From UHGV virus genome UHGV-0092003: a stretch of 64,000 nt of DNA; one strand, given 5' to 3'. The DNA comes from a virus. Positions 10,535 to 30,260 of this stretch are shown one piece after another. The stretch's first letter is position 1. Each line of letters begins with the position of its first letter. The notes beneath the pieces are model-generated. The model was given only the letters and a program-made list of their open reading frames with translations. It was not told the origin of the DNA and made no database searches. Position numbers and translations under genes: made by a program.

Positions 10535-10582
10535 AAACAAAGCCGCCTACAGGAAGTGGGCGGCATCTCAAGGAAGAGAAAA
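10532..10582 (+). promoter_or_regulatory. conserved hairpin+RBS element, copy 1 (GCCGCC…GGCGGC + ATCTCAAGGAAGAGA)
   Basis: Near-identical ~48-bp element also at 25965–26011, after the other giant gene. Confidence 0.5.
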
Positions 10583-10918
10583 ATGGCAAGACAAACCTTT
10601 AACTGGTTCCCGGACTTTGAGTCCGAAAAGACGGTAAAGCCAGAAGTGACCATTCTGAAATTTGGCGACGACTACGAGCAACGCCAGTCAGCCGGTCTTA
10701 ACCGCATTAAAGAAGAATGGGCGCTGACGTTTAAAAGACCTTACAGCATCGGTAATGCTATCGACGATTTTCTGACAGCTCGCGGCGCAGTTGAGTCATT
10801 TTACTGGACGACCCCGCGCAATAAGAAAATCATCTGTGTGTGTGATTCTCATACTGTTAAACGCTATCCGGGGTATTTGGAGATCAGTTGTACCTTTAGA
10901 CAAGTTTTTGAATCTTGA
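10583..10918 (+). CDS. minor tail protein M-like
   Basis: 111 aa from the ATG with RBS AAGGAAGAGA; the upstream GTG at 10556 is less likely. Lambda gene order. Confidence 0.55.
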   Translation: MARQTFNWFPDFESEKTVKPEVTILKFGDDYEQRQSAGLNRIKEEWALTFKRPYSIGNAIDDFLTARGAVESFYWTTPRNKKIICVCDSHTVKRYPGYLEISCTFRQVFES

Positions 10919-10937
10919 TAAGTAAGTATTTACTTAT
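10917..10937. promoter_or_regulatory. palindrome ATAAGTAA-GTAT-TTACTTAT (family A)
   Basis: Perfect inverted repeat between the M-like and L-like genes. Confidence 0.5.
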
Positions 10938-10968
10938 TAATATATAAGGTATCGTTTTTAACTCAAGG

Positions 10969-11673
10969 ATGAGTATGAGTATTCGCACGGAAATTCAGGG
11001 GTTGGCACCGTCCTCCATTATCGAGCTTTTTGAGCTTGATATGTCGGTAACAACCTCGGGCGGGAAGCTTTTCTTTCACGCCGGAACGAACAATCTCGGC
11101 ACATCTGTCGTCTGGCAGGGCGTTGAGTACCAGCCATGGCCGATTAAGGCGAGTGGGTTCGATAAAACGGGTTCAGGTTCTTTGCCTCGACCAAAGATTA
11201 CCGTATCTAACTATGGCGGCACAATTTCAGCTGAAGTCGCGGCAAATGACGATCTGGTTGGTTGCACAATCACGCGTCGACGCACGCTGGCTCGCTTCCT
11301 CGACGCATCGAACTTTCCGGCCGGAAACGCGACCGCCGACGCTTCTCAGCACTTCCCTGATGAAATCTGGTTCGTTGAGCAGAAGACGCTGGAGACTAAA
11401 GATAGCGTCGAATTTGAGCTATCCAGTGTATTTGATTTGATGGGTGTTCAGTTGCCCGCACGTCAGATCATCAAAAACAGCTGCCCGTGGAAATACCGCG
11501 GCGCGGAGTGTGGCTTCTCAGGCCCGTACTTCGACAAGAACAACAACCAGGTCACATCGGCCAGCGAAGACTACTGCACCAAGCGTCTCGATGCGTGTAA
11601 GGCAAGGCGGAACTTCTTCGCCAACGGAATCATTGCTTTTGGCGGCTTTCCGGGGGCAACGCGTGTTCAGTGA
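10969..11673 (+). CDS. minor tail protein L-like
   Basis: 234 aa (lambda L is about 232 aa). Cys-rich C-terminus; gene order. Confidence 0.6.
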   Translation: MSMSIRTEIQGLAPSSIIELFELDMSVTTSGGKLFFHAGTNNLGTSVVWQGVEYQPWPIKASGFDKTGSGSLPRPKITVSNYGGTISAEVAANDDLVGCTITRRRTLARFLDASNFPAGNATADASQHFPDEIWFVEQKTLETKDSVEFELSSVFDLMGVQLPARQIIKNSCPWKYRGAECGFSGPYFDKNNNQVTSASEDYCTKRLDACKARRNFFANGIIAFGGFPGATRVQ

Positions 11674-11698
11674 TATTAAATCCATTGCCGGCTCCGCG

Positions 11699-12466
11699 GT
11701 GACGCAGTCGCTATATCAATGCGCTATTGCCCGTTATCCAAATGAGGCGTGCGGGTTCATCGTCCAGACATCGGGGGAGAAATATCGCTTTATTGAGGCG
11801 CGAAACGTCTCTGAAGACCAGACCAATGAGTTTGTCATGCATCACGAAGACGTGATTGCTGCCGAAGACGAGGGCGAGGTTGTGGCTATCTGGCATAGCC
11901 ACACTGATCGCCCTCCAGTGGCCTCTGACGCCGACCGCGCTGGTTGTGAGGCAACGGAGCTACCTTGGCTCATCCTCTCCGTCACGAAAAATCTTAACCC
12001 GGAGATTGATGCCGAGTTTCGTTTAAGCGAGATGGAAGTGATCACGCCCAATGGCTTTGAAATGCCGTACACCGGCCGACCGTATGTCTTTGGCATCTTC
12101 GACTGCTGGATGCTGTGTCGAGACTATCTGAAACGCGAATTCAATATCGAGATCAACGCCAACGCTCACCTGCATATCCCGTCGTGGTATCTGGGCGACG
12201 ACGACATTCTCGACCTGAATTATCGCAATGAAAATCTCGTCCGTCTTGCCCATGGCGAAGAGCCTCAGAAGGGCGACATCTTCTTCATTCAGTACGGGAA
12301 GATGCCAGATCACTGCGCTGTTTACGTTGGTGACAACCGCATCCTGCATCACCAAATCGACAGACTCAGCAGTCACGCCACTTACGGCGGTATGTACCAG
12401 AAAAATACGACGCATCATTTGCGTCATCGGGCGTTATTAACAGGGAAGGAAAAATGTCTGAATTAG
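11699..12466 (+). CDS. tail assembly protein K-like (MPN/JAMM + NlpC/P60)
   Basis: GTG start giving MTQ…. JAMM motif HSHTDRPPVASDAD (HxHx7Sx2D). NlpC/P60 Cys (FDCWMLC) and His (DHCAVYVG…HH). Confidence 0.8.
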   Translation: MTQSLYQCAIARYPNEACGFIVQTSGEKYRFIEARNVSEDQTNEFVMHHEDVIAAEDEGEVVAIWHSHTDRPPVASDADRAGCEATELPWLILSVTKNLNPEIDAEFRLSEMEVITPNGFEMPYTGRPYVFGIFDCWMLCRDYLKREFNIEINANAHLHIPSWYLGDDDILDLNYRNENLVRLAHGEEPQKGDIFFIQYGKMPDHCAVYVGDNRILHHQIDRLSSHATYGGMYQKNTTHHLRHRALLTGKEKCLN

Positions 12467-13065
12467 TTCATGTCCAGCTGGGCGGCGCACTTGCGAACCG
12501 CTTCGGCCGACACTGGCATCTCCGCGCATCAAATGCGGCGCAAGCCATCAATCTGATCGACGCAAACAAACCAGGCTTAAATGCCTGGATTCGTCGTAAT
12601 GCGAAGGTTTACGACCGTTATCACATTCAAATCACAACCAAAAGTGGAGCCACATGGTCGGTTGACGAAACCGAATACATGATGAAAGGCGCCGGTAAGG
12701 ATGTTGAGAAAATACGCATCACGCCAATACCAAAGGGACGTGGCGGGAAGACGCTTGGCTACGTTCAGGTCGCGATTGGCGCCGCGATGGTGGTCATTGG
12801 TGCATTCACAGAAATCTTCACTGCAGGCACATCCTCGGCGCTGGTTGTGGCCGGCATGAGCATGATGATGGGCGGTCTGGCTCAGATCCTATCCCCACAA
12901 GCAAAAAACCCGGAAGTGAGACAAGCGGATAACTCCGACTCGTTTTATTTCGACGGGCCTCAAAACACTACTAATCAGGGAAACCCGGTTCAGCTGAACT
13001 ACGGCGAAGAAATTCTCGTTGGCTCGCAAATCGCAAGTTCCTCTATCACTATTGACCAGATTTAA
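12454..13065 (+). CDS. tail assembly protein I-like
   Basis: 203 aa with N-terminal ubiquitin-like region and hydrophobic C-terminal half. Lies between K and J. Confidence 0.65.
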   Translation: MSELVHVQLGGALANRFGRHWHLRASNAAQAINLIDANKPGLNAWIRRNAKVYDRYHIQITTKSGATWSVDETEYMMKGAGKDVEKIRITPIPKGRGGKTLGYVQVAIGAAMVVIGAFTEIFTAGTSSALVVAGMSMMMGGLAQILSPQAKNPEVRQADNSDSFYFDGPQNTTNQGNPVQLNYGEEILVGSQIASSSITIDQI

Positions 13066-13076
13066 CGGTGGAATAA

Positions 13077-16000
13077 ATGGAAGTTCCAAATTTCAAAAAA
13101 AGCCGTCTCTCGCAATTAGTCGCGCACGGCCTGATTATCTCAGGACGCGGCGGCAGTAAGGGTGGCGGTAGCTCAAGGACGCCGGTGGAGGCTAATGACA
13201 CGGTAAACAGCCGCGCCATGGCTTCTGTATTGGATTTGCTGGGTGAGGGTGTTATCGGTGGTCTGATTGATGGGGCAAAATCCATCTTCCTGAACGACAC
13301 GCCGCTCCAGAATAGCGACAATTCCTACAACTTCAGCGGTGTAACCTGGTGGTTCCGCGACGGTTCTCAGGATCAAAGTGTCATCGATGGTTTTGACTTC
13401 ATTGAAACGCCGAAATCAGTAGGGCGTCAATTGAAGCAAACGAGCCAGGTTAACGTGTCTCTGGATTCTGCGGACAGCGATCGCGTTCGTGTGGTGATGA
13501 AGTTCCCTTCACTTCGCAGCATCGATAAAAAGAGCGGCGATACTAACGGTACGACGGTCCAGTTTAAATTCCAGATCGACGCAGGTAATGGCGGCGGCTT
13601 TGTTGACGTTGTTGCAGAGGGAGAATCCAACGCAACCATTTCTCTGACCGCGAAGAAGACAGGTGTTTATTACCGTAGTTATGTTCTGGACTTACCGAAG
13701 CCGGCAAAGGCATATACTCTGCGTGCCATTCGTCTGACTGAAGATCATACCGATAACAGCTATCTCTACGATGACACCTACATCGATTCGATCGGTGAGA
13801 TTGTCAATACCAGCCTGAACTATCCGAACTCTGCGCTCGTTGGCCTGAAAATCAACTCAGAGCAGTTCGGTTCTTCAATGCCGACTCGTTCATACCTGAT
13901 TAAAGGTTTGAAAATTCGTATCCCGTCAAACTATAACGCTGACACGAACTCCTACGACGGCAATTGGGACGGTACATTTAAGCTGGCATCATCCTCCAAC
14001 CCGGCGTGGATTCTCTTCGACTTGCTGACGAACACTCGTTACGGTCTGGGTCAGTTTGTTCAGGAGTCGATGATTAACATCGGCGAGCTGTATCAGATTG
14101 GTCGCTACTGTGACGCATACGTCGACGATGGCTTCGGCGGCAAAGAGAAACGTTTCTCTATCAATACCCAGATAACCAGTCGCCAAGATGCATATCGCGT
14201 CGTGCAGGACATTGCAGGGGCATTCCGTGGCATGGTTTATTGGGCTGGTGGCATGGTTCACATCACGCAGGATTCTCCAGCAGACCCTGTGATGCTGTTC
14301 TCCAACAGCAACGTGGTAAATGGCTCATTTGCATACAAAGGTTCGGCGCGTAAAGATCGCTATTCCGTTGCTCTTATCACCTACAACAATAAAGAAGACG
14401 GCTACAAGCAGAGCGTCGAGTATGTAGAAGATCAGGAAGCGATTAAACGCTACGGTATCCGCAAAACTGAGTCCGTCGCATTCGGCTGTACTTCGCGGGG
14501 CCAGGCGCATCGCGTTGGTCTCTGGACGCTCTACACCTCTCGCATGGAATCTGACGTCATCACCTTTGCAGTGGGTATGGACTCTGTATTCCTGATGCCT
14601 GGCGACATCGTGCTGATCGCAGATAAATTCCGCGCTGGCCGTCGCAACAGTGGTCGTATTACCGGCTACACCTCCAATAGCATCAAGCTGGACGCTCCGG
14701 TTGATCTGACTTCAGTTGGAAACCATATCACCTTCCTCAGCGCAGAAGGAAAGATGGTTGGGCGTGATATTTTGGAGAATGGGAAGAACATCACCACCGT
14801 CACGTTTAAAACCGCTCTCAGCTCCAATGAGACGCCGGTAAGCGATGCAGTGTGGGTCATTGCTCAACCAGACTTAACTCCGCTACAAGCACGCGTTGTG
14901 AGCGTTGCTGAGGGTGACGATGGTACGTCGTTCAATATCACGGCTATTCAGAACAACCCGACCAAATACGAAGCTATTGATAGCGGCGCACAGCTGATCC
15001 CGCAAAATACCACCGTTCTTGACCCAACGTTCTCAAAGCCGTCAGGTCTGGCGATTACCGAAGGCACTTATCTGTCCTCTCCGGGTAACTTGTCCGTTTC
15101 TCTGACCGCTACATGGCAGGGCAAGTCGGCTCAGTATTACATCAGCTGGCGCCGCTCCGATGCCGGGAATGTTTCAAACTGGAAATCTGAGCGCGTAACT
15201 GAAGAACAGTTCGAACTTCGTGGAGTAGCGGAGAACGGCCAGTACGACTTCCAGGTGTACGCTGTTTCTGTTGGTGGCCGCAAAACTGATCCTATCAGCA
15301 TCACCTACAAAGTTCTGGGAACCATGACGGCGCCTGATGCCCCGACCGGTCTAACTGCGGTAGGCGATTATCGCTCAATTGTTCTGAATTGGGTAAACCC
15401 GGCTTCCGTTGACTTGGATCACATCGAGGTTCTGGCATCCAAGACCAACGATAAGTCTAAAGCGCAGCTGATTGCCAAGGTATCTGGTACAACCTTCAGT
15501 CACAACGGTCTTGAAGACTCTGTCACCTGGTATTATTGGGTACGTGCAGCCAACAAACGTGGAATGCTCAGTGCGTTAAACTCCCCACTGGCAACGACCG
15601 CAACGACGCGCGACGTTCTTTCGTTCCTGCAAAATAAAATCACCGAATCCGAGTTGGGTCAGGCTCTGATTACTGATATTAACAGTAAGGCTGTGGCGAC
15701 AGAGGTGGACGCGGCCATAGACGACGCCAAGAGTCAGGCAACGAATCAGGTGAATAGTGCTCGAGCTGAGGCGGCTAATGCGGTGAGCCAAGCGCAGAAG
15801 ACTCTTGATTCGTTGATTAAGCAGGAGGTGACGGACCGCAAAAGTGCCGTTGCTGATGAAGCGAGACAGCGTGCCAAAGCTATTGCAGATGAAGCTGATG
15901 CACGCACAAAGGCGATTTCTGACGAGGCCACTGCTCGCGCAGATGCAATCTCGAAAGAGGTCACTGCTCGCGACAAGGCTATTGCTGATGAAGCCACTGC

Positions 16001-19000
16001 CCGTGCTAAAGCTGTTGCAGATGAAGCCAGCGCTCGTGCTTCCGCGATTAGCGATTCGATTGCGGTTGAGGCTAATGCTCGCGCTAAGGCGATTTCGGAT
16101 TCCGCATCCACTCTCAGTGCTAAAATTGACAAAGAGGCAAGCGACAGAGCCGCGGCAGTTTCTGCGTTGGATACTAAAACTGCCAATGCTCTCTCTTCCG
16201 AAACATCAAGTCGTATCGCCGCTATTTCTGACGAAGCAAAGACTCGCGCTGACTCGATCCTTCAGGAACAGAATAGCCGCAAGGCTGATATTAGTACGCT
16301 GAAGACCCAAGTTCAGACGTCTACTGACTCTCTGGCTCAGCAAATCTCCCAAGTGGCTGCAGGCACTGGCGAGCAGTTTGATAGTCTTAATATTTGGTAT
16401 TTCGATACCAGCAATGAAGGTTGGACTGAAGACGATAGCGGTAATACGCCAATGAGCGTAACCAGTGATGGGTGGCTGCGTTCGGCCAGCAGTACCGCAT
16501 CGTACCGATCGCCTAACTATATGGCTATTGATGCGGCCGCATACCGGTTTGTTAAATTACGTCTGAAGAAAGTGGGATCACCGGTCTGGGCTGGTAAGTT
16601 ATTTTGGATCGGTACGTCAGAAGGTGGCTGGAGCGACGCTCGCTCATTGACTATCAACGAGCCTGAATATGACGCGAATGGCGTGGCAACGCTGACGATT
16701 CACGACATTGACTGGCGTTCGTCTGAAACTATTCGCCGCTTCCGTTTTGACTTCTTGAAAAATCAGGACAGCACAAACTACGTCCAGATCGACTGGATTG
16801 CTGTTGGACGACCAACGCCGGGCGCTGGTATGGCTGCGCTGCAGGCTGAGCAGACAGCACGTGCAAATGCTGACGCAGCTGAGGCCGCAAATCGAAACAC
16901 GCTCGCCGTGCAGATTCGTGGATCATATGACGGAAACGATCTTTCTAAGGTCAGTTCTGGTCTGATTTTCCAGGAGCAGCAAGCGCGAGTTACCGCAGAC
17001 AAGGCAGAGGCAACGGCACGTCAGTCACTTGAGACGAAGGTGAATGATAGCGTGTCCAGCATCAACAAGTCGCTTGATACCCTGAACACTCAGGATAAAG
17101 CGATGGCGTCTGACATTTCCGGTATCAAATCGTCTCTTGGTAATAAGGCTGACGCGTCGGCGCTGCAAACACTCAAGACGACGGTTGACCAGCAAGGTTC
17201 TAGCATTTCCACACAGGGCCAGTCGATTACCAAGCTTCAGAATGACCTGAACACGACCAACACTAATGTAGGTAAAAAAGCCGATCAGACGGCACTCGTC
17301 TCATTGCAGGGAACCGTGACGCAGCAGGGTAAAGATATCACTTCTGCAAATAGCAGCATCACTAATCTCAAGACCTCTCTGGACGCTACGAATAGCAATT
17401 TAGCGAAGAAAGCGGATGCGTCAGCTGTTGGTGATCTGTCTTCTCGCGTCAGCGCAACCGAGGATAAAGTATCAAGTCAGGGAGATAGCATTGTTCAGCT
17501 GAATAACTCACTGAATAACGCGCTGGCCGACTCTGACGCCTCTTCTAAAACGCCTAACAATCTGATCGTCAACCCGTCATTTGAGCGCGGTACAGATGGC
17601 TATATCGGCGTATCCAGTCTCAGTACGGTCGTTGATATTCAGATACCGCATGTCGGCACAAAAGCACTGAAAATTGACCCAGGTAGCTCCGTATCTCCGG
17701 GCCAGTACATCGATTTTGTCAAAGGCCGTACTTATGAGATCGGCGTCTGGGCTAAACAGGTTTCTGGAACAGCAGATAATGGGCAGAGTAACAACAAACT
17801 GCGAGTGGGTAATAGTGCTGGAGCGCCAGTGTTTGAGGTCCCGTTCGCAAACCTCACCGTTGACTGGACGAAAGTTAGCAAACGATGGAAGGCTACCGAG
17901 ACGGGAAGTCTGCCCGTTACGCTGAGCAACTATCTGACGGCCGGAAACCGTTACTTCGACGATTTTTATGTCATTGATGTAACCGACTCCGTGGCTATTG
18001 ATGCAAATGCTTCCGCACTGTCTTCGCTACAGAATACCGTGACGCAACAGGGTAAAGACATTTCGTCCCAATCCACCAGCATCACCGACCTGAACAACAG
18101 TCTGAAAACGACCAACGACAACGTAGCGAAGAAAGCTGATTCCTCCGCTGTTCAGACTCTTCAGAACACAGTGACTCAGCAGGGTAAGGATATTTCCGCA
18201 GCTACAAGCGATATATCTTCATTGAAGAACGGTCTTGCCACGACCGATGGTAATGTTGCGAAGAAAGCTGATGCGTCTGCATTGCAGTCTCTGCAGAATA
18301 CGGTAACACAGCAGGGTAAAGATCTGACCAGCGTCGGAAGTCGAACTACCGCTCTGGAAAACAATCTCAAAGCGACGAATGACAATGTTGCAACCAAGGC
18401 CGATGCCTCCGCGCTGTCAACGCTTCAGAATACCGTATCACAGCACGGTGACTCCATTGCGTCTCAGAGCGACTCAATAACCAGTCTGAAAAACAGCGTC
18501 GGTTCTATGGTTAACATGGGCGACAATCTGGTTCAGGACTCCAGCTTTGACAACGGCGGGCAAACGTTCAGGACTCAGCAAAATTCTGGAACATCTGGAA
18601 GCATTGTTGCGTTTGGTGCGTTTGGTGAAAACTCGGCCGGTGTGCGTATGGTTAAAGTCAACAGCACGTCGCCTGGTCTGTTCGCTAACGGCAAACTGCC
18701 AGTTCCGGTAAATGGCGCGAGAAAATACCGTTACATTGTTCGCGCGAAGGGTGTTTCCGGGGCAATGAATATGCTGCTGCGCCGCTGGAATTTTAACGGC
18801 AATACGGAAGGGGCGTATGAAGATAAGAACAATACGCTTACTACTGACTGGCAGACTATTACATGGGACACATCCTTCTCGCCGAAAGATGGTGTGAATG
18901 GTCAGTCCTTTGGTATTTACTGCCATCCGGCTAATGCTGAGATCTGGATTGATTCATTCCAGGTGTTCGATATCACCGATGCTTTTAACAATGACACGAC

Positions 19001-22000
19001 AGCAAGCGCGTTGAGCAATCTGTCCACGACAGTTTCTCAGCAGGGAAGCACCGTAACTTCTCAGGGTGCGGCAATCACAAAGCTGCAAAATGATTTAAGC
19101 TCCACAAAAACCGATGTCTCGAAAAAGGCTGACTCGACGGCGTTGCAGACGCTGCAGAACACCGTTACTGATCAGGGTAAAACGCTGACCAGCCAAGGCA
19201 ATGCAATCACGGCTTTGACCGGCACCGTTGACACGGTAAAAGGTGATGTGGCTAAGAAAGCGGATGCGACGGCTTTGAATAACCTTTCTACTCGGGTTAG
19301 CAATGCTGAAGATAAGATCAGCAGCAGCAGTGACGCCATCACTTCGCTGAACAACTCGCTGAATCAGCAGTCTAAGCGCGGCGCAAACATCTTGCCAGAC
19401 GGGACGTTCGAGAGCTATTCGAGCGGGTACAATATCACCAATGGTCGCGTCATCGTGACTACTGACGATTCTCACGGCGGAAACAAATGCATCCGTGTGA
19501 CGCGTCCGAACGACTACAATCCCAATGCAACTGACAACAGTGACAACCACATCTTCAGCGGCTTCCAGGTTCGAGATAATGCGGTGTTTTATGTTGAGTG
19601 CTGGGTTAAGTTGGATGCCAAGAGCACGACGATGGATGGTTCGGTGCAGATTGCGATCGGCATGTCGTTGCAGTATCAGGATAACTCCTGGCAGTGGCCG
19701 GCACTCATTAAGTCGGCAAAAGATCTGTCCGCAGACACCTGGACGAAAGTCAGTGGCTATCTGAAGAGCAGCAAGAGCGGTATCAAACAGGCGATGGTAC
19801 GGATCTCCATGCCAAACGTATCGGCTGTTAAGGCGGGTAACTCCTTCCTCGTCGATGATTTTGTCATTACCGACGTGACAGACGCCTATAATGCCCAGCA
19901 GACGGCTGATGCCACTGCGAGCGCGGTATCAACGCTTCAGACGACTGTGTCCAAGCAGGGCGACAGCATCACCTCGCAGGGCGACAGCATCACAACCCTG
20001 AATAATGGTCTGGCTACGGCGAACAAAGCCATTGGCACCAAGGCTGATGCCTCCGCGCTGTCATCGCTGCAAAACACCGTTACCCAGCAGGGTAAAGACG
20101 TTGCTGCCAACACCAGCAATATCACTGCGCTGTCAAATCAGGTTGTCAACGGCAAGCAGAACACCTGGTCGCGACGTATTTACAAATGTCAGCTATCTAA
20201 CTCTGCCACTGAGCCTACATTTAGCGATATCCAAGGGCTTTCTCCGGTCTTTATGGATGAAGTGGCCGACGCAGCTAAAATGGACTTCTCTGGCGCTGGG
20301 TCGTATGTGGTTGCGCATTATAAGGCAATGGTTCGTGTTGCTGCGGATACCACAATCGCCGTATCACCTGGCTCTCGTGTGTTTGATGACTCCGGTGCGG
20401 TGTATGTGAATGGTGTTCGTCAGGCTGCTGCGTTGGCTGGAACAGCTGTACTCAATTTCACACTGTCCGCCGGCTGGAATACTGTAGAGTTTCTGATTAA
20501 TCAGTGGACCGGTAATGCCTATGTCAATCTGGGCTTCAAGCTGGGCGACAAGGTTGCCGAGCTGTATTCTGGTCTGGGCGTCTCTTCACTGTCTTCGGCG
20601 CTGAACTCGATCACCTCCAACGTCAGCAAGGTGGGTGATCAGGTTTCCAGCAACAGCACGGCGATCACCTCTCTGAAGAACGGTCTGAGCGATACCAACT
20701 CTACCGTTGCGAAGAAAGCAGACGCCACGGCATTGCAGACGCTGCAAAACACCGTCACCCAGCAAGGCAAGGATATCGCAAGCCAGAGCGACAGCGTGAC
20801 GAACCTCAGCAACGCACTCAATAATGTTTCTATTGGCGGTGTCAACCTGATCAAAAACTCAGGCGACATGACCGGCTGGTCTGGTAAAACCAATGAGATC
20901 TTCCGTGGCAATGCGGTGATTAGTGCGACTTCAAAAGCTGGTAGCTCTTACCGAGATCTCAAAGAGATCATTCTCGACGCTCCAGTCGACAATGCAGAGT
21001 ACGTTTACAGTTTCTTTGCAAAAGGCGGTGAGAACGGCCAGAGCATGACCGCTTACTTCTACAATCCTAACTCGACGACATCTAGTGTTAGTAGCCAAGG
21101 TGTGTCAGGCGGTGATGTCGATGGTCGTATGTCATTCACTTTGACAACTGAGTGGGTTCGTTATTGGGTTAAGTGGAAGCAGAAGCCGGGAACTGGATCT
21201 AAGAGACTAATCCTTGCTCGCATCCAGGCATCTTCGACGAAAGATCAGACCGTCTCTATCACCAGCCCTAAGCTGGAAGTTGGCAATATGCCTACAGAGT
21301 GGTCTCCGGCGCCGAGCGATATGGCATCGTCTAACGATCTGTCATCGCTGAAGACTACGGTTGACGCGAATAGCGGCGCTATTCAGTCTGTGACCTCTCG
21401 CGTCCAGACAACTGAAGACAGCATCTCCACGCAGAATACCGCGATCACTAAGCTTCAGAGTGATTTGTCGAGCACCAACAATCTGGTTTCGACAAAGGCT
21501 GATTCAGCTGCGCTTCAGACACTGTCAGGTCGCGTAGATAAGACGGAATCCAGCATCAGCACGCAGAACGATGCAATAACCAAGCTGAACAGCAGCCTTG
21601 ATACCACAAATAAAGCTGTGGCTAAAAAGGCGGAGCAGTCGTCTCTCGATACGCTGAGCGGCCGGGTATCCAGCACTGAAAATGGAATCACGGCGGCGAA
21701 CTCCAGCATCACGTCTCTGAATGCGGCTATTCGCGCAGAGAACGCGAGCAGTGGGGATTTGATTACCAACCCTACATTTGACCCTCAGTACGCTCAGATG
21801 GGATTTACCGTCGTCACAACCGACACTGATGGTGTTCCAGCAAACTGTCCATTCAAATATGCGGCTAAACTTGCGTCCCGTGACCATCATCCAAACTTCA
21901 ACACCATTGTCGCAACGCTGGGCGATGTGTTTGAAATTTCTGTGCTGGTGGCGTGCGGCGCTGGGAATGCTGACTTTAACCTCTATATTGGCACAGCAAA

Positions 22001-25000
22001 CGGCCCAACTGGTGGGATAGGTGGCCCGCTTTATAATGGCGGAAATACCAAAGCTACAAGCACCTGGACTCGCGTAACATGGAAGTTCACTGTTAGCCAG
22101 GCAATGGTTGACAAAGGCTACATTCGTCCGTTCCTGCAAATCAACCAGTCTTCACCGTTCGGCACGATCTGGTATGTGACTGACTGGCATATGCGCAACA
22201 TCACTGCGGCATCTAAGGCGCAGGATACGGCGAATGCCACCTCTAAGGCGGTCGATTCTCTGACGTCCACAGTGAACCAACAGGGCAGCGATATTTCCTC
22301 GATCGGCTCTCGCACAACGTCGCTTGAGAATGGTCTTAGCACTACCAACGCTAACGTCGCGAAGAAGGCTGATGCTTCAGCTCTGCAAACACTCCAGAAC
22401 TCGGTGACGCAGCAGGGTAAAGATATTTCCAGCCAGGGCACTCGTGTGACGTCCATCGAGAATAGCCTGACGTCTGGTGCTAACCTCATCCCTAACGCCA
22501 AGATGCTCAATGGCGCACAGGGATGGGCTGGGGCGGCGACAACTGTCGACGGTTATGCGGCGGCAGAAAGCTCGTCTGCATGGCAACCAAGCTCACCACC
22601 GTTTGAAGTGACACCGGGCGATACGCTGGATTTAAGCCTGATGTGTCTGGCAAATGCGGCAATTACTTTCGCCTGGGGATTGCGTTTTGACGGACCTAGT
22701 CTCAGCAATAAAACCGTCTACACAAACAACTTGAGTTATCAAGCTGGTGAGAAGAAGGCTGTAAGCGGTACGATTGTCGTTCCTGCCGGCGCGACCACAG
22801 CACGGCTGCAACCGAACACCGGCGCTACCGCGAGTCTGACCGTCTATAACGTCGTCGTCACTCGTCGAGACGCAGGAACTATGGCCAACAGCTCCGCTAT
22901 TGACTCGCTGACCAGTACGGTTAAGACGCAGGGTGACACGCTTAGCTCGATCGGAAGTCGCACAACTTCGCTGGAAAATGGGCTGAAGAGCGCTAACAGC
23001 GCTCTCTCACTGAAAGCGGACGCGTCGGCACTGTCATCGCTGACAAATACCGTGACCCAGCAAGGCAAGGATCTGGATGCAGCAGAAGCCAATATAACTG
23101 CGGCGAACACCAGCATCACCTCCATGCAAGCGTCACTGACTCGTCGCACTGTATTTACGGTAACGGCGAAAGGCAACGGTAACAGCGCTAATCACGGTCT
23201 CTTTGATGAGTCAGGTAAAAATCTGTTTACGCCTGGTCGTAGCTATGCGCTGATCACGTTTAAAGCGAATAGCGACGGCTCGACGGTCATTAATACCAGC
23301 AAAACCTATGACGTTTTTGGCTCTGCCAACAACGGGAAGGCGATGTCTGACGATATTGCTGCTCTGGCTAATGGCGTTTACGTTTGCGTGATGACTTATG
23401 ACGAGCCGACGGGTCAGCGTAATTCGATTGCATCTGCCTTAGAGTTGCTCGGTGGCACAACTGAAGTTATTAACTCTCTGCCATATCGCGGCGCGTACAT
23501 TCTCCTTGGCCGTAAAGGCATGAAGGCCGGCGACGGTCTGGAGTTACGCGCACCTACAGGTGGTGACTCCAGCGCATTTATTTCCACGTCCGTTGAGTTT
23601 GTGAACGGGGTAATGATGGGGTTGGGCGCCGCCGGCGGTGTAATGATGAAGGCGGATGCGAACGCCAGTGCAATCACCACTCTGCAAAATACCGTAACGC
23701 AGCAGGGCAAGGATATTACATCGGCCAGTAGTGCGATCACTAACCTACAGAATGGTCTCAATACGGCCAATGGGGATATCAACAAAAAAGCTGATGCGAC
23801 TGCTCTTTCCGCGCTTCAGAATACTGTGACGCAGCAAGGTAAAGATATTTCCTCTCAGGGATCATCTTTAACCCAACTGACTAATAGCCTAAATGCGACT
23901 AACGACAGCATCGACGCGTCTGGTCAGATTCCTGGAAACATGATCACCAACGCCTCATTCGAGCGTGATAACGGTGGATATAGTACCTGGAGTGGCCCTG
24001 CTTCTGTCATGGTGGCACAGTCGCCGCGAACCGGTAGCAAAATACTGAAAATCGCGTCTGGTTCTCCCACTTTGGTTGGTCAGAAAATCACATATGTGAA
24101 GGGACGTACATACAAAATCGGCATGTGGGCGCGTCAGGATTCTAATACGACGATTAATGGTGGAACGAGTAACACAAAATTCAGGGTAGCGGATAGCACC
24201 GGACTTATTGCATCGTTTGGTTACGGCCCATTCACGACGTCTTGGCAGGAAATTTCGTGGGTCTGGAAAGCGACCAAAGACATGGTTGCAGACACACAGA
24301 TCACCGCCTATCTGACCGCCGGTGCGATGTATTTCGACGACTTCTACGTCATCGACATTACTGACCGCGTCGATCTGGATGCCACAACGTCCGCGGTTTC
24401 CGGTCTGACGACGAGAGTGTCCAATGCTGAAGGGGATATTTCAAATATCTCCAACAGCGTTACCAGCCTGAACAATAGTTTGAGCACGTTGAATAAGACA
24501 GTCAGCTCTAAGGCTGATGCCTCGGCACTGTCTTCGCTGCAGAATACCGTTACTCAGCAAGGAAAAGACATCTCATCGGCGAGCGAGAGTGTCACCAACC
24601 TTCAGAGCAGTCTCAACACGCTGAAAGTCCAGACCAACCCTTGGATCGACGGCACGTTTGAAACCTATGACAATAATCAGCAGATTGGCGGCAGCACTGC
24701 GGTTATTACTACGGATTTCAAGAGCAGCGGCAACAAATGTCTGAAGGTGACTCGCCCAGCGAATGCAAGTGGAAACTCCGATAAGACTATAGGTTCTTAC
24801 TCTGTTGTGCGTCAGAGCGCCAAGTACCGCGTTGAGTTCTGGGCAATGATGCCGGCTGCAGAAGCGCCACCGTCTGGTTGGTCTGTGGCCGTAGGTCTTC
24901 ACTCCATCAACAAAGATGGTGGGAATGACTGGCAGGGCATCACGTTCAATGAGGGTAGCCTCGGCGGGCGCGATAAATGGGTGAAATTTACAGGGGTGGT

Positions 25001-25967
25001 AAGCCTGAGTGCATCGGTGACTCGTAGCCATGTGTGGATTTCGACCCGTGGTCAAAGTGGATCTAATACACCTGGTTATAGCGTGTACATTGATGATTTC
25101 GTCATTACAGACGTCACTGACGCTGCAGAGGCGCAGCAAACGGCTAATGCTAATGCGACGGCCATTTCGTCTCTGCAAGCTAAGACGAGTGATCTGGACG
25201 GGAAAATCACGGCGCAGACCAGCCAACTGACGTCGATGCAGTCGAAGGTAGACGCGTCTTCTTCGAAAGTGGATCAGCTGTCTAAGACCATTTCGGACAG
25301 TCAGAGCACTCAGGCATCGTTGAACACCAGTCTTCAGTCTCAGATTGATGCTCAGGCTTCGGCCAACATCAAAAACCAGGCTGATTTGAACTCGGCGACA
25401 ACGAGCATCGCGTCTATCAAATCGACTCAGGCGACTCAGGCGACTCAGATTAGCGCAATGGCAAAAACGCAGACTGACATGACCGCATCATTGAATAGTC
25501 AATCTGCATCTATCCAGACGCTGCAAGAGGCGGTCTCAAACAATGACGCGCTGAACAGTACCTGGATGGTGAAGATGGAAACCAACAACAACGGGCAGAA
25601 GTATGCGGCGGGCATCGCTCTCGGTGTTGATGGCAAAAATATGCAGAGTCAGTTCCTGGTTCAGGCAGATCGATTCGCGCTAATTAACACCTCGAATGGC
25701 AATACGACGACTCCGTTTGTGATTGATAATGGTGTAACCTATATGAACGCGGCCTTCATCAAGGATGGGTCAATAGGTAGCGCCAAGGTCGGTGACTTAA
25801 TGAGTTCTAATTTCCAAGAAAATGTTAGAGGTTGGAGAATCTCTCGCGATGGAACGATGAACATCAATGGCTCTGGGCCGGGTAGTTCCAGAACCGTAAT
25901 CACGAACGGTAGGATCGAAGTTTACGACTCGAATAACCGTCTGCGCGTGAGAATGGGTATTTTCTAA
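13077..25967 (+). CDS. central tail fibre / host specificity protein J-like, giant (4296 aa)
   Basis: N-terminus and C-terminus align with lambda J (…GVTWWFRDG…, NSALVGLKINSEQFGS, WMVKMETNNNGQKYAAGIALG…QFLVQADRFALIN). About 3000 aa of inserted repeat modules. Confidence 0.9.
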   Translation: MEVPNFKKSRLSQLVAHGLIISGRGGSKGGGSSRTPVEANDTVNSRAMASVLDLLGEGVIGGLIDGAKSIFLNDTPLQNSDNSYNFSGVTWWFRDGSQDQSVIDGFDFIETPKSVGRQLKQTSQVNVSLDSADSDRVRVVMKFPSLRSIDKKSGDTNGTTVQFKFQIDAGNGGGFVDVVAEGESNATISLTAKKTGVYYRSYVLDLPKPAKAYTLRAIRLTEDHTDNSYLYDDTYIDSIGEIVNTSLNYPNSALVGLKINSEQFGSSMPTRSYLIKGLKIRIPSNYNADTNSYDGNWDGTFKLASSSNPAWILFDLLTNTRYGLGQFVQESMINIGELYQIGRYCDAYVDDGFGGKEKRFSINTQITSRQDAYRVVQDIAGAFRGMVYWAGGMVHITQDSPADPVMLFSNSNVVNGSFAYKGSARKDRYSVALITYNNKEDGYKQSVEYVEDQEAIKRYGIRKTESVAFGCTSRGQAHRVGLWTLYTSRMESDVITFAVGMDSVFLMPGDIVLIADKFRAGRRNSGRITGYTSNSIKLDAPVDLTSVGNHITFLSAEGKMVGRDILENGKNITTVTFKTALSSNETPVSDAVWVIAQPDLTPLQARVVSVAEGDDGTSFNITAIQNNPTKYEAIDSGAQLIPQNTTVLDPTFSKPSGLAITEGTYLSSPGNLSVSLTATWQGKSAQYYISWRRSDAGNVSNWKSERVTEEQFELRGVAENGQYDFQVYAVSVGGRKTDPISITYKVLGTMTAPDAPTGLTAVGDYRSIVLNWVNPASVDLDHIEVLASKTNDKSKAQLIAKVSGTTFSHNGLEDSVTWYYWVRAANKRGMLSALNSPLATTATTRDVLSFLQNKITESELGQALITDINSKAVATEVDAAIDDAKSQATNQVNSARAEAANAVSQAQKTLDSLIKQEVTDRKSAVADEARQRAKAIADEADARTKAISDEATARADAISKEVTARDKAIADEATARAKAVADEASARASAISDSIAVEANARAKAISDSASTLSAKIDKEASDRAAAVSALDTKTANALSSETSSRIAAISDEAKTRADSILQEQNSRKADISTLKTQVQTSTDSLAQQISQVAAGTGEQFDSLNIWYFDTSNEGWTEDDSGNTPMSVTSDGWLRSASSTASYRSPNYMAIDAAAYRFVKLRLKKVGSPVWAGKLFWIGTSEGGWSDARSLTINEPEYDANGVATLTIHDIDWRSSETIRRFRFDFLKNQDSTNYVQIDWIAVGRPTPGAGMAALQAEQTARANADAAEAANRNTLAVQIRGSYDGNDLSKVSSGLIFQEQQARVTADKAEATARQSLETKVNDSVSSINKSLDTLNTQDKAMASDISGIKSSLGNKADASALQTLKTTVDQQGSSISTQGQSITKLQNDLNTTNTNVGKKADQTALVSLQGTVTQQGKDITSANSSITNLKTSLDATNSNLAKKADASAVGDLSSRVSATEDKVSSQGDSIVQLNNSLNNALADSDASSKTPNNLIVNPSFERGTDGYIGVSSLSTVVDIQIPHVGTKALKIDPGSSVSPGQYIDFVKGRTYEIGVWAKQVSGTADNGQSNNKLRVGNSAGAPVFEVPFANLTVDWTKVSKRWKATETGSLPVTLSNYLTAGNRYFDDFYVIDVTDSVAIDANASALSSLQNTVTQQGKDISSQSTSITDLNNSLKTTNDNVAKKADSSAVQTLQNTVTQQGKDISAATSDISSLKNGLATTDGNVAKKADASALQSLQNTVTQQGKDLTSVGSRTTALENNLKATNDNVATKADASALSTLQNTVSQHGDSIASQSDSITSLKNSVGSMVNMGDNLVQDSSFDNGGQTFRTQQNSGTSGSIVAFGAFGENSAGVRMVKVNSTSPGLFANGKLPVPVNGARKYRYIVRAKGVSGAMNMLLRRWNFNGNTEGAYEDKNNTLTTDWQTITWDTSFSPKDGVNGQSFGIYCHPANAEIWIDSFQVFDITDAFNNDTTASALSNLSTTVSQQGSTVTSQGAAITKLQNDLSSTKTDVSKKADSTALQTLQNTVTDQGKTLTSQGNAITALTGTVDTVKGDVAKKADATALNNLSTRVSNAEDKISSSSDAITSLNNSLNQQSKRGANILPDGTFESYSSGYNITNGRVIVTTDDSHGGNKCIRVTRPNDYNPNATDNSDNHIFSGFQVRDNAVFYVECWVKLDAKSTTMDGSVQIAIGMSLQYQDNSWQWPALIKSAKDLSADTWTKVSGYLKSSKSGIKQAMVRISMPNVSAVKAGNSFLVDDFVITDVTDAYNAQQTADATASAVSTLQTTVSKQGDSITSQGDSITTLNNGLATANKAIGTKADASALSSLQNTVTQQGKDVAANTSNITALSNQVVNGKQNTWSRRIYKCQLSNSATEPTFSDIQGLSPVFMDEVADAAKMDFSGAGSYVVAHYKAMVRVAADTTIAVSPGSRVFDDSGAVYVNGVRQAAALAGTAVLNFTLSAGWNTVEFLINQWTGNAYVNLGFKLGDKVAELYSGLGVSSLSSALNSITSNVSKVGDQVSSNSTAITSLKNGLSDTNSTVAKKADATALQTLQNTVTQQGKDIASQSDSVTNLSNALNNVSIGGVNLIKNSGDMTGWSGKTNEIFRGNAVISATSKAGSSYRDLKEIILDAPVDNAEYVYSFFAKGGENGQSMTAYFYNPNSTTSSVSSQGVSGGDVDGRMSFTLTTEWVRYWVKWKQKPGTGSKRLILARIQASSTKDQTVSITSPKLEVGNMPTEWSPAPSDMASSNDLSSLKTTVDANSGAIQSVTSRVQTTEDSISTQNTAITKLQSDLSSTNNLVSTKADSAALQTLSGRVDKTESSISTQNDAITKLNSSLDTTNKAVAKKAEQSSLDTLSGRVSSTENGITAANSSITSLNAAIRAENASSGDLITNPTFDPQYAQMGFTVVTTDTDGVPANCPFKYAAKLASRDHHPNFNTIVATLGDVFEISVLVACGAGNADFNLYIGTANGPTGGIGGPLYNGGNTKATSTWTRVTWKFTVSQAMVDKGYIRPFLQINQSSPFGTIWYVTDWHMRNITAASKAQDTANATSKAVDSLTSTVNQQGSDISSIGSRTTSLENGLSTTNANVAKKADASALQTLQNSVTQQGKDISSQGTRVTSIENSLTSGANLIPNAKMLNGAQGWAGAATTVDGYAAAESSSAWQPSSPPFEVTPGDTLDLSLMCLANAAITFAWGLRFDGPSLSNKTVYTNNLSYQAGEKKAVSGTIVVPAGATTARLQPNTGATASLTVYNVVVTRRDAGTMANSSAIDSLTSTVKTQGDTLSSIGSRTTSLENGLKSANSALSLKADASALSSLTNTVTQQGKDLDAAEANITAANTSITSMQASLTRRTVFTVTAKGNGNSANHGLFDESGKNLFTPGRSYALITFKANSDGSTVINTSKTYDVFGSANNGKAMSDDIAALANGVYVCVMTYDEPTGQRNSIASALELLGGTTEVINSLPYRGAYILLGRKGMKAGDGLELRAPTGGDSSAFISTSVEFVNGVMMGLGAAGGVMMKADANASAITTLQNTVTQQGKDITSASSAITNLQNGLNTANGDINKKADATALSALQNTVTQQGKDISSQGSSLTQLTNSLNATNDSIDASGQIPGNMITNASFERDNGGYSTWSGPASVMVAQSPRTGSKILKIASGSPTLVGQKITYVKGRTYKIGMWARQDSNTTINGGTSNTKFRVADSTGLIASFGYGPFTTSWQEISWVWKATKDMVADTQITAYLTAGAMYFDDFYVIDITDRVDLDATTSAVSGLTTRVSNAEGDISNISNSVTSLNNSLSTLNKTVSSKADASALSSLQNTVTQQGKDISSASESVTNLQSSLNTLKVQTNPWIDGTFETYDNNQQIGGSTAVITTDFKSSGNKCLKVTRPANASGNSDKTIGSYSVVRQSAKYRVEFWAMMPAAEAPPSGWSVAVGLHSINKDGGNDWQGITFNEGSLGGRDKWVKFTGVVSLSASVTRSHVWISTRGQSGSNTPGYSVYIDDFVITDVTDAAEAQQTANANATAISSLQAKTSDLDGKITAQTSQLTSMQSKVDASSSKVDQLSKTISDSQSTQASLNTSLQSQIDAQASANIKNQADLNSATTSIASIKSTQATQATQISAMAKTQTDMTASLNSQSASIQTLQEAVSNNDALNSTWMVKMETNNNGQKYAAGIALGVDGKNMQSQFLVQADRFALINTSNGNTTTPFVIDNGVTYMNAAFIKDGSIGSAKVGDLMSSNFQENVRGWRISRDGTMNINGSGPGSSRTVITNGRIEVYDSNNRLRVRMGIF

Positions 25968-26011
25968 AACAAACCGCCCGCAAAAGTGGGCGGTATCTCA
26001 AGGAAGAGATA
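25965..26011 (+). promoter_or_regulatory. conserved hairpin+RBS element, copy 2 (CCGCCC…GGGCGG + ATCTCAAGGAAGAGA)
   Basis: Same architecture and identical 15-mer as the copy at 10532–10582. Confidence 0.5.
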
Positions 26012-27553
26012 ATGTCTATGTACGAAGTCGGCACTGTTACTGGTGCTGCAAATCAGGCGAAAGTGACCGGCGCCACAACAAAATGGTCTAACACTGCTCT
26101 GGGTATTCAGCAGGGTTCTATTCTGGTCGTTTATCGTAGCGGCAATGCAGATCTATATGCAATTAAGTCAGTGGATAGCGACACCCAGATAACGCTAAGC
26201 AGAAATATCTCGGCGGCTTTCTCTGGCGCATCTTATGGCATCATCACGTCAGAGACAGCCAGTACGTCAGCTTTCGCTAACCAACTCGCCAGTGCATTCT
26301 CTCTTTGGCGTAGTGTAGTCGAAGGGTGGTCTGCCGCCCTGACATCGACTGGTAACATTACGATGACAGACCCGATCACTGGAACATCAGTCACTGTTCC
26401 TGCGATTAAGGGAATGGCGAAGCTTGCCGGAGGTAATAATTTCACCGGCACACAAAGCCTGGATAGCGACGACTCAGGCTTCATTCTTGGAAAGAACGGC
26501 GATATTGGTCTGGTCAAGAAGAGCGGCACTTATGGGAAAGTCATGGTTGGAAAATCATCTCGATTCTCAGTCGTTCGAAGTGATCAAGACCGGATATCGG
26601 CAACTGATGGGCAGACTGAAATTTTTGGCGTTGAAGCTAACGGTGACGTCAAAGTCACGAATTCACTTTATGCCAAAGGCATTCTGCAAAGTGATTATCA
26701 GGTTAAAGCACAAAGTATCGAGCTTTCATTTTCCTCGCCTTACATCGATTTTCATTATGGGAATAGCGCAGCCGACTATACTCATCGAATTATTGCGGAT
26801 GATCCTGTGGCACTTGGTTTTGAATGCAGTATAAGAGTTTCCAAAAATATAAGAGCGCAAGAAGGTATAAAAGCAGATAAGTATATGCGCGCTGCGGGTA
26901 GAGCTGGTTTCATTGCGCAATATGACAGTGACCCCGGCGGAAATATCGGTGATATTCGAGTTGCCCCGATCTTGTGCAGCCAATTCGCAACTATAGGCTC
27001 TGATGGAAACGGGAACGCTGGCGCGAATTTTTGGTTTGAGGAACACATAGGTAATAACCACCGTTTGGTAACTCAGGTCAAGGGATATGGTGCGGCGGTT
27101 CAGTATTGGCATCATCGCAGCGATGGGATGATTTGGAATAGTCAACGTGGGGATGTGGCATGGGCTGCAACCTCTGATAAAAATCTCAAGCATGATATTA
27201 AGCCCACAGACGGTCGACAGTCATTGCAGAATATCAACGCTATGGATCTGGTTACATTTATCTATAACGACGATGAACGCCAGCGTCTGCGTCGAGGTGT
27301 AATTGCTCAACAAATTCAGAAAATTGACCCATGTTATGTGAAGGTTAGCAAAGGGGTGATAAACCATCCTGCCATCTTGGATGAAAGTGGTAATGAGATT
27401 GAGCCAGAACGTATGGAGACAATTGAAAAACTTGTACTAGACACTAACCCCTTGATGATGGACGCTATTGGCGCTATCCAGGTGCTGTCACGTGAGATGG
27501 AAGAAATCAGACGAGAGAATGCAGAGCTTCGCAATTTACTTACGCTTAAATAG
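26012..27553 (+). CDS. side tail fibre with C-terminal intramolecular chaperone (peptidase S74-type) domain
   Basis: C-terminal SDKNLK (SDxxxK) motif and GVIAQQIQKI segment typical of auto-cleaving chaperone domains of fibres and spikes. Confidence 0.7.
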   Translation: MSMYEVGTVTGAANQAKVTGATTKWSNTALGIQQGSILVVYRSGNADLYAIKSVDSDTQITLSRNISAAFSGASYGIITSETASTSAFANQLASAFSLWRSVVEGWSAALTSTGNITMTDPITGTSVTVPAIKGMAKLAGGNNFTGTQSLDSDDSGFILGKNGDIGLVKKSGTYGKVMVGKSSRFSVVRSDQDRISATDGQTEIFGVEANGDVKVTNSLYAKGILQSDYQVKAQSIELSFSSPYIDFHYGNSAADYTHRIIADDPVALGFECSIRVSKNIRAQEGIKADKYMRAAGRAGFIAQYDSDPGGNIGDIRVAPILCSQFATIGSDGNGNAGANFWFEEHIGNNHRLVTQVKGYGAAVQYWHHRSDGMIWNSQRGDVAWAATSDKNLKHDIKPTDGRQSLQNINAMDLVTFIYNDDERQRLRRGVIAQQIQKIDPCYVKVSKGVINHPAILDESGNEIEPERMETIEKLVLDTNPLMMDAIGAIQVLSREMEEIRRENAELRNLLTLK

Positions 27554-29464: not shown

Positions 29465-29983
29465 TTATGGGAGCTGTGCAATTTTGGATGTAGGGTAAAA
29501 GAATAGGTTTTCATTATCACCAATCAACCTAGTAAACCCTAAATTTTCATAAAATTTACAAGCAGATTCATTCTTAGCGTCAACAAACATACCATGAAGA
29601 CCTATCGCGTTAGCTGCTTGAAGAACCACTTTTGCTGCCTCGACCACCAGCATTTCACCAATGCCTTGTCGCTGGACTGTCTTGTCGACAGCCAGTCGGC
29701 CCAGGATTATGCATGGGGTATTGGTATAAGGAATTTTCTTCTGCTGGCTTTTGGATGGAAATCTACTTCGCTCAAACGACCCCCCGGCCAAAGTAAAGAA
29801 GCCAAGCACTTTTGGTAAGCCAGATCCATACTCAAGATATACGTATCCACGCAGAATCTGCTTTTCGTCCTGTCTTTGAAGATGTTCTGACAGGAATAAA
29901 TTTAGCGCCTCGTTACCGCAGTCGAAGGAGCTAATGTCGTATGGAAAATCTTTCTGTATTGGTTCAATATCATACGTGTTCAC
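29465..29983 (-). CDS. GNAT acetyltransferase toxin (TacT/AtaT-like)
   Basis: GNAT acetyl-CoA motif QRQGIGEMLVVEA. 172 aa. Immediately downstream of the DUF1778-type antitoxin, 4 nt apart. Confidence 0.65.
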   Translation of the reverse strand: MNTYDIEPIQKDFPYDISSFDCGNEALNLFLSEHLQRQDEKQILRGYVYLEYGSGLPKVLGFFTLAGGSFERSRFPSKSQQKKIPYTNTPCIILGRLAVDKTVQRQGIGEMLVVEAAKVVLQAANAIGLHGMFVDAKNESACKFYENLGFTRLIGDNENLFFYPTSKIAQLP

Positions 29984-29987
29984 GCTA

Positions 29988-30260
29988 TCAGGTCCTTAAA
30001 TTTTTAAGGCGCTCAGCAGCTCGCTTCATTCTGTCATTCGGTTGATCTGGGTTGTTGATGGCATCCATCACCAATTTCCAGGAATCTTCGCACAAAACGA
30101 TTCTGCGATGCTGCTCAATCACCTCTGTGGCTCTTTCTGCTGCGCTACTTATCACAAACTGGCTCACGCTTAGATTGGACAAGATCGCCGCTTCCTCAAT
30201 GACTGACTTAGCTTCATCGGTCAGTCGTATATCGATACGTTCTTTTTTCAAAGTGGGCAT
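29988..30260 (-). CDS. RHH/DUF1778-type antitoxin (TacA-like)
   Basis: 90 aa in antitoxin-first operon with the GNAT toxin. Confidence 0.6.
   Translation of the reverse strand: MPTLKKERIDIRLTDEAKSVIEEAAILSNLSVSQFVISSAAERATEVIEQHRRIVLCEDSWKLVMDAINNPDQPNDRMKRAAERLKNLRT

Follow-up and report, generated by a model that had tools for sequence, protein, structure and literature searches.

A giant lambda-J-like tail-tip protein with a modular lectin-like and coiled-coil insert in an SSU5-like Klebsiella phage-plasmid

We analyzed UHGV-0092003, a 64,000-nucleotide stretch of viral DNA (hereafter the window; nucleotide coordinates refer to it), in which a single uninterrupted ATG-started open reading frame (ORF) at positions 13077–25967 of the plus strand encodes a protein of 4296 amino acids (aa). 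We are highly confident that this protein, referred to below as giant J, is a J-type tip or central fibre protein carrying an insert of lectin modules and coiled-coil segments. Comparison of the window with the Klebsiella pneumoniae plasmid pMB7868_2 (NZ_CP103584.1, 111,561 bp, from a blood isolate) gave 100% identity. This plasmid is an SSU5-like phage-plasmid, and the product of the giant gene is labelled there as a "phage tail protein" (RefSeq WP_163583724.1). The identical 4296-aa sequence was present in 8 independent contigs of 50–200 kb, including one 111-kb short-read metagenome contig, and other complete plasmids carried intact, nearly identical giant J genes (99.9% and 97.8% identity). 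These intact copies indicate that the gene is not an assembly artefact. An earlier first-pass annotation of this DNA had described the same 4296-aa ORF with lambda-J-like ends, and most of its description was correct.

Residues 28–868 aligned with residues 3–835 of lambda J (phmmer against PDB sequences, 8iyk_J, E = 1.1e-130), and this N-terminal hub also aligned with the F2-pyocin fibre and with further J-like tip proteins. Pfam detected Phage-tail_3 (PF13550, E = 9e-31) and fn3 (residues 670–739) in the hub and, at the other end, Phage_Tail_Tip (PF09327) at residues 4146–4272 (E = 5e-37, 127 bits against a cutoff of 22). Residues 4153–4231 matched C-terminal lambda J fragments in a PDB search; this match stops at positions 141–221 of the 420-aa fragments, and only 65 aa follow in giant J. 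Nothing aligned to the last ~200 residues of lambda J in the PDB sequence search, that is, a lambda-type LamB-binding domain was not detected. The score for the NCBIfam model lambda_TipJ (NF049904) was 544.9 bits and did not reach the equivalog cutoff of 1950; the protein is therefore a homologue of lambda J and not an equivalog. The J protein of Salmonella phage SSU5 (gp20, 1385 aa), which is the closest backbone relative, aligned to residues 3–1099 (59% identity) and 4025–4296 (39% identity), with ~2925 aa inserted between them, in agreement with the figure of about 3000 aa given earlier. The segments of giant J, in order along the gene, are as follows (CBM, carbohydrate-binding module).

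13077..15686 (+): lambda-J-like hub, aa 1–870, with Phage-tail_3 (367–530) and FN3 domains (670–833)
15717..16376 (+): Ala-rich hendecad (11-aa) coiled-coil region, aa 881–1100
16377..16862 (+): module M0, aa 1101–1262, homologous to the R4C megatron carbohydrate-binding domain
16863..17150 (+): helical linker cc1, aa 1263–1358
17151..17540 (+): cluster u1, 3 units, aa 1359–1488
17541..18005 (+): module B1, aa 1489–1643, CBM_4_9 (Pfam; CBM16 structure 2zew)
18006..18509 (+): cluster u2, 4 units, aa 1644–1811
18510..18998 (+): module B2, aa 1812–1974, divergent CBM_4_9 relative
18999..19379 (+): cluster u3, 3 units, aa 1975–2101
19380..19913 (+): module B3, aa 2102–2279, CBM_4_9 (Pfam)
19914..20177 (+): cluster u4, 2 units, aa 2280–2367
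20178..20588 (+): module C, aa 2368–2504, all-β, possibly PA14-like (low-confidence model only)
20589..20831 (+): cluster u5, 2 units, aa 2505–2585
20832..21368 (+): module D, aa 2586–2764, all-β, C-terminal end LEVGNMPTEWSPAPSD
21369..21755 (+): cluster u6, 3 units, aa 2765–2893
21756..22238 (+): module E, aa 2894–3054, remote CBM_4_9-family relative (hhalign)
22239..22487 (+): cluster u7, 2 units, aa 3055–3137
22488..22886 (+): module F, aa 3138–3270, predicted β-sandwich
22887..23150 (+): cluster u8, 2 units, aa 3271–3358
23151..23660 (+): module G, aa 3359–3528, ILEI / GG-lectin-type domain (Pfam)
23661..23918 (+): cluster u9, 2 units, aa 3529–3614
23919..24383 (+): module B4, aa 3615–3769, CBM_4_9 (Pfam)
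24384..24647 (+): cluster u10, 2 units, aa 3770–3857
24648..25151 (+): module B5, aa 3858–4025 (by paralogy to B3)
25152..25511 (+): last unit and heptad-like coiled coil cc2 (period about 3.5), aa 4026–4145
25512..25964 (+): Phage_Tail_Tip (DUF1983) distal domain, aa 4146–4296 (Pfam)

Eleven globular modules belonging to at least six sequence families were found, ten of them (133–179 aa) between clusters of a helical unit and one, M0, upstream. The Pfam gathering threshold for CBM_4_9 (PF02018), 25.9 bits, was exceeded by B1 (43.5 bits), B3 (27.9 bits) and B4 (29.9 bits), and that for ILEI (PF15711), 27 bits, was passed by G (45.3 bits, E = 1.3e-11). In a PDB sequence search B1 also matched CBM16 crystal structures, including 2zew. 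M0 matched the carbohydrate-binding domain (residues 482–629) of the megatron protein of roseophage R4C (8gtc_M, E = 5.5e-7; PMC10276861). B4 is 47% identical to B1, and B5 is 38.5% identical to B3. Two modules are linked to CBM_4_9 through paralogy only: B2, whose CBM_4_9 score of 15.2 bits is under the cutoff, and B5, for which Pfam CBM_4_9 gave no match at E ≤ 0.1. Module E joins the B family by hhalign profile comparison (probability 86%, E = 5e-6), and D has only a weak profile link to it. For C and F, hhalign gave no link to the CBM_4_9-like modules. When profiles of C, D, E and F were compared with PDB sequences nothing significant was found, the best matches being a "hypothetical sugar binding protein" (E = 0.026) and a sialidase N-terminal region (E = 0.03). 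A homologue search with module D returned 19 Klebsiella fragments only.

Further information on these modules came from an AlphaFold2 (AF2) monomer model of residues 2360–3275, which cover four modules, with a low mean predicted local distance difference test (pLDDT) value of 63. In this model the modules are all-β, and between them run unbroken helices of 81, 134 and 94 residues that coincide with the unit clusters. A Foldseek search with the model returned CBM22, CBM4, CBM16 and PA14 carbohydrate-binding domains with a template modelling (TM) score of about 0.5 on the target, and also a mycobacteriophage central fibre. The output carried no query coordinates, and the PA14 and CBM22 matches therefore belong to the four-module model and not to individual modules. 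The term β-sandwich is applied to C, D and F on the basis of this weak model and of Foldseek matches in which the matched module is unspecified; judged by the model, these three are probably lectin-like. As a set, the modules of giant J belong to carbohydrate-binding families or resemble them. The first-pass annotation had suggested domain searches of the β modules for carbohydrate-binding folds, and the CBM_4_9 assignments of B1, B3 and B4 bear out that expectation. It had also described at least five such modules, each ending in the same DDF..D.TD signature; five carry it by a looser pattern and only three by the strict one, and they are members of a diverse set and not copies of one repeated module.

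The helical unit is 44 aa long and occurs in 26 copies between residues 1359 and 4067 (hidden Markov model search). Its consensus is DASALQTLQNTVTQQGKDITSQGSSITSLKNSLSTTNANVAKKA, and the invariant LQNTVTQQGKD cores are spaced exactly 44 residues. The clusters hold 3, 4, 3, 2, 2, 3, 2, 2, 2, 2 and 1 copies, in alternation with the ten globular modules. The earlier count of more than 25 units was accurate, whereas the unit length of ~35 aa was too short, and the proposed block size of 3 kb should be replaced by 0.65–0.97 kb. Hydrophobic residues within the unit recur with periods of 44/12 = 3.67 and 44/13 = 3.39; at 3.5 there is no signal. The pattern suggests a coiled coil of non-heptad type, consistent with the trimeric state of lambda J. 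A weak sequence match to the P22 gp26 trimeric needle was also observed in the PDB search. Ahead of M0, about 11 hendecads are in register at residues 881–1001, and more, out of phase, continue to about residue 1100; Tandem Repeats Finder (TRF) reported a period of 33 nt (68% match) for this region, and its hydrophobic period is 3.67. Because SSU5 J has the hendecad region too, the hendecads (about 12 in the earlier description) lie outside the insert, in which they had been placed.

The family to which giant J belongs is already catalogued (phiKO2 gp21, PHROG 2589, 142 clusters); the searchable literature yielded neither an anatomical account of the 44-aa units and modules nor any functional experiment on the family. 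PHROG 2589 (profile length 3686) matched 16 stretches of giant J with E = 0. When 1.84 billion cluster representatives were searched, 604 clusters passed E ≤ 1e-3 and 142 passed E ≤ 1e-30; most measure 2000–4800 aa and match in many stretches. Megablast with the gene as query found no match in the phage collection, and information came only from the protein-level and plasmid searches. Insert DNA is nearly confined to Klebsiella (112 of the 117 plasmids matched). By protein search, Klebsiella phages account for 54 of 88 phage records and most of the remainder are phages of Acinetobacter and Stenotrophomonas; J is short in SSU5 and in E. coli relatives. In the protein collection, the majority of homologues (P0002–P0139) are "partial" contig-end fragments, and the named ones are all from Klebsiella but one. 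Short-read assemblies often break at this gene, probably because related copies are present in several prophages of one genome.

Ten homologues spanned 3433 aa (phiKO2 gp21) to 5171 aa (pINF102.5). The number of modules in these relatives is 6–12 and the order of modules differs, with module types duplicated or absent, and giant J scores 10 in this map, which counts modules between unit clusters only and leaves M0 out. The distal order G–B1/B4–B3/B5–tip is kept in SSU5-like elements. In two relatives (L007, CP110757.1, 2214-17729; L009, pJN2-26, 8007-20144) the C-terminal regions past the last unit are 408 and 360 aa, compared with 229 aa here, and their final sequences are unrelated to the C-terminus of the 4296-aa protein; the distal tip is therefore exchangeable too. 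A K. oxytoca relative (L005) lacks residues 1750–2542, comprising B2, B3 and C, and the junction is within the LQNTVTQQGKD core of a unit. The segment of the window at 22269-23695 (F, u8 and G) is common to the ~52–54 kb Klebsiella plasmids NZ_CP146173.1, OW848837.1 and OW959916.1 at 81–87% nucleotide identity. Since ~52–54 kb is the size of N15/phiKO2-like linear prophages, this sharing suggests module exchange between unrelated phage-plasmid families. Relative to a colinear homologue, the synonymous divergence (dS) jumps from 0.01 to more than 2.6 between adjacent segments, and the ratio of nonsynonymous to synonymous divergence (dN/dS) is mostly 0.02–0.2 across all segments of the 12.9-kb gene. 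This combination is indicative of a recombination mosaic under purifying selection. One colinear J homologue, that of pVH1-2-1 (L003, NZ_CP027801.1, 1104-13974), is annotated as two overlapping ORFs of 1824 and 2476 aa, which reflects a sequencing error or else a pseudogene split by a frameshift.

Comparison with known systems helps to place the architecture. Giant J shares with lambda J (PDB 8IYK, 8K35, 8XCG; 1132 aa) the hub, FN3 domains, a Phage_Tail_Tip segment and the gene position after M, L, K and I, but is 3.8 times longer, with ~3000 aa of units and lectin-like modules ahead of the tip domain. SSU5 J has the hendecads and lacks the entire array of 44-aa units and modules. The protein gp21 of phiKO2, a linear plasmid-prophage of K. 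oxytoca (3433 aa, "similar to lambda J protein"), has the J hub, 21 units of 44 aa and the tip domain, and shares module types D, B3/B5, B1/B4 and E with giant J. The two differ in backbone (N15-like linear in phiKO2, SSU5-like circular here), in C-terminus and in module number (6 compared with 10 when counted alike, or 11 with M0), and are ~35% identical. Homologues of ~4200 aa in Klebsiella prophages were mentioned by de Sousa et al. 2020 (PMC7784688). In evolved Dit/Tal proteins of lactococcal and streptococcal siphophages and in the R4C megatron, CBMs are grafted onto tail-tip proteins to adhere to surface polysaccharide (PMC7291167, PMC7533335, PMC10276861); there, one or a few modules sit in loops, whereas giant J has 11 along a helical shaft and a Gram-negative host. 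Long helices alternating with β-sandwiches also occur in the tail protein of Acinetobacter phage XC38, in Streptococcus phage PblB and in an F5/8-type-C protein of Acinetobacter phage ME3 (Foldseek against BFVD, E = 3e-29 to 1e-20). XC38 was matched at the sequence level too; however, a fusion to a J hub is not shown for these proteins, the identity is 12–22%, and the comparison rests on the low-confidence model.

The best overall explanation, which we favour while leaving considerable room for doubt, is that giant J is the J fibre of an SSU5-like Klebsiella phage-plasmid that displays lectin knobs on a coiled-coil shaft. By analogy with lambda J, the protein would trimerise. The unit clusters would then form the shaft and each module triplet a knob, so that one virion would display 33 lectin-type domains. 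If extended, such a fibre might reach ~220–270 nm (from ~1500 helical residues at roughly 0.15 nm, plus the knobs), and this would equal the tail length that the 1512-aa tape measure would specify. It is possible that the knobs bind sugars of the capsule or O-antigen weakly and multivalently, and that the distal Tail_Tip domain is carried across the polysaccharide layer and arrives at the outer membrane with no enzyme removing the capsule. Over evolutionary time, whole modules may be gained, lost and swapped at the 44-aa unit core, such that specificity and length are retuned. The functional model, from the trimeric shaft with 11 triple knobs and its length to multivalent binding and delivery of the Tail_Tip domain, has in our judgment about an even chance of being correct. 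A broader version is doubtful, though worth stating: each knob might serve a different K- or O-polysaccharide, as on a key-ring, in a depolymerase-free passage of the capsule, with the number of units and modules setting fibre length to capsule depth, and with module swaps among SSU5-like, N15-like and lytic siphophages as the chief means for temperate Klebsiella phages to shift their capsule-type host range.

Several observations weigh against the lectin-knob fibre. Receptor binding by SSU5, which infects rough Salmonella via the lipopolysaccharide core, is credited to the side fibre gp22 and not to J (PMC12312913). CBM-like β-sandwiches can be purely structural, C, D and F are without significant sequence-level assignment, and the AF2 model is a monomer of low confidence. 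That the protein trimerises, that it is extended and not folded back, and how long it is are points that we infer. Exchange at the units is favoured by 40 of 47 colinearity breakpoints located in unit clusters (39% of the insert), but this count is inflated, since alignments can run on into conserved linkers. Finally, one SSU5-like K. pneumoniae plasmid was not inducible to virions (PMC8969562), and the present element can therefore be called only putatively infectious.

An alternative use of the repetitive gene, implied by the first-pass annotation when it pointed to near-identical DNA stretches as substrates for variation in length and specificity, would be a contingency-like locus, at which intragenic DNA repeats recombine and produce fast changes in repeat number and specificity. 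The protein is indeed highly repetitive, and the variation in module and unit number among relatives, with junctions in units, agrees with this part of the proposal. However, the DNA substrates were not found. Of the 26-mer quoted as an example, the gene contains one exact copy and one copy with 2 mismatches. The longest exact direct repeat within the gene measures 23 nt; codon-shuffled controls gave 12–16 nt. Tandem repeats that are both long and nearly identical are absent at the DNA level, the 33-nt array being the only one reported by TRF. Among the 17 full units, mean identity is 44% for amino acids and 50% for nucleotides (pairwise DNA identity, 34–64%). At positions with an identical amino acid in two units, the codon is shared in 38% of cases, compared with 36% expected under random synonymous choice. 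Synonymous sites are therefore fully randomised from unit to unit, and the units are conserved as protein only. In addition, the 99.9%-identical gene is equal in length, the 97.8%-identical one is 7 aa shorter overall (8 gapped codons in u8) with an unchanged number of units, and the exact protein recurs on the 8 independent contigs. With unit DNA diverged and unit number constant in close relatives, giant J does not look rapidly length-variable, and we consider a contingency-like locus quite improbable. Gain, loss and reshuffling of modules is an evolutionary-timescale process with its joints in the unit core, and not a rapid switch of repeat number.

It might also be that the insert is a passive spacer or ruler, in which the modules are structural beads and the host is recognized by the distal Tail_Tip domain and the side fibre only. 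In all SSU5-like relatives the last three modules and the tip stand in the same order, low dN/dS values prevail throughout, most modules show no positive-selection signal, and several modules have no detectable lectin family, all as a spacer would predict. Yet at least five modules have a curated or significant match (three to CBM_4_9, one to ILEI, and M0 to the R4C domain), the module repertoire is reshuffled far beyond the needs of a spacer, and modules are exchanged between unrelated phage-plasmid families, which makes this view unlikely. Klebsiella phages commonly carry depolymerases. An enzymatic fibre, whose modules degrade the capsule, would moreover fit the capsule-type specificity reported for temperate Klebsiella phages without known depolymerases (PMC7784688); against this, no glycoside hydrolase or other hydrolase, lyase, right-handed β-helix or pectate-lyase family was detected in Pfam, PHROG and NCBIfam scans of the protein, no depolymerase is annotated on pMB7868_2, and the modules are β-sandwiches of 133–179 aa. 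We regard an enzymatic role as very improbable, and assign the same low probability to an artefact or relic, meaning that assembly had collapsed or expanded the gene, or that it is decaying on a domesticated plasmid. Intact, identical or nearly identical ORFs in several complete plasmids and on the 8 contigs, together with strong purifying selection along the whole 12.9 kb, are difficult to reconcile with such an origin, although many homologues are partial contig-end fragments, the gene of one relative is split by a frameshift, and a related plasmid was not inducible (PMC8969562). Assembly collapse, depolymerase function and rapid repeat-number variation were considered and rejected.

The genes around giant J follow the order tape measure–M–L–K–I–J–side fibre, on the basis of PHROG matches of the five upstream ORFs and RefSeq annotation, and J occupies the same position as in lambda.

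5996..10534 (+): tape measure protein, 1512 aa (PHROG, RefSeq)
10583..10918 (+): gpM-like minor tail protein (PHROG, RefSeq)
10975..11673 (+): gpL-like minor tail protein (PHROG, RefSeq)
11663..12466 (+): gpK-like C40 peptidase (PHROG, RefSeq)
12454..13065 (+): gpI-like tail assembly protein (PHROG, RefSeq)
26012..27553 (+): side tail fibre, 513 aa, with Peptidase_S74 intramolecular chaperone domain

Several features of this region were noted in passing. Residues 261-525 of the tape measure protein (5996-10534) match PHROG 1768, labelled "endolysin" (E = 7e-45), and may constitute a muralytic or related domain inside this protein. A hypothetical/membrane-protein ORF at 27940-28653 matches PHROG 873 ("endolysin", E = 8e-84) and transglycosylase-type PHROGs; because of these matches and its position after a holin-like small ORF, it is likely a lysis cassette. 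A GC-rich hairpin (25973-25994; 7 pairs, 6 of them GC) is located 6 nt past the J stop codon, ahead of the side-fibre gene, and was rated terminator-like on the minus strand. A promoter and terminator scan within the giant J gene revealed nothing exceeding chance. On the minus strand, a GNAT family N-acetyltransferase adjoins a DUF1778 protein by annotation (29465-29983 and 29988-30260). Toxin–antitoxin pairs of the TacT/TacA type typically have this layout, and the two genes probably serve as a plasmid-maintenance module.

Temperate Klebsiella phages and phage-plasmids infect by capsule type, yet usually without recognisable depolymerases (PMC7784688), and phage-plasmids can carry resistance genes. 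A tail-tip fibre of ~450 kDa for which we infer 33 lectin-type domains provides a concrete candidate for this capsule-type specificity. As the gene family is already catalogued, the value of the present analysis lies in functional follow-up and not in discovery. The exact module boundaries and the 44-aa joint of natural swaps make swap experiments and engineering directly designable, and the modules could be expressed, swapped and used as capsule probes.

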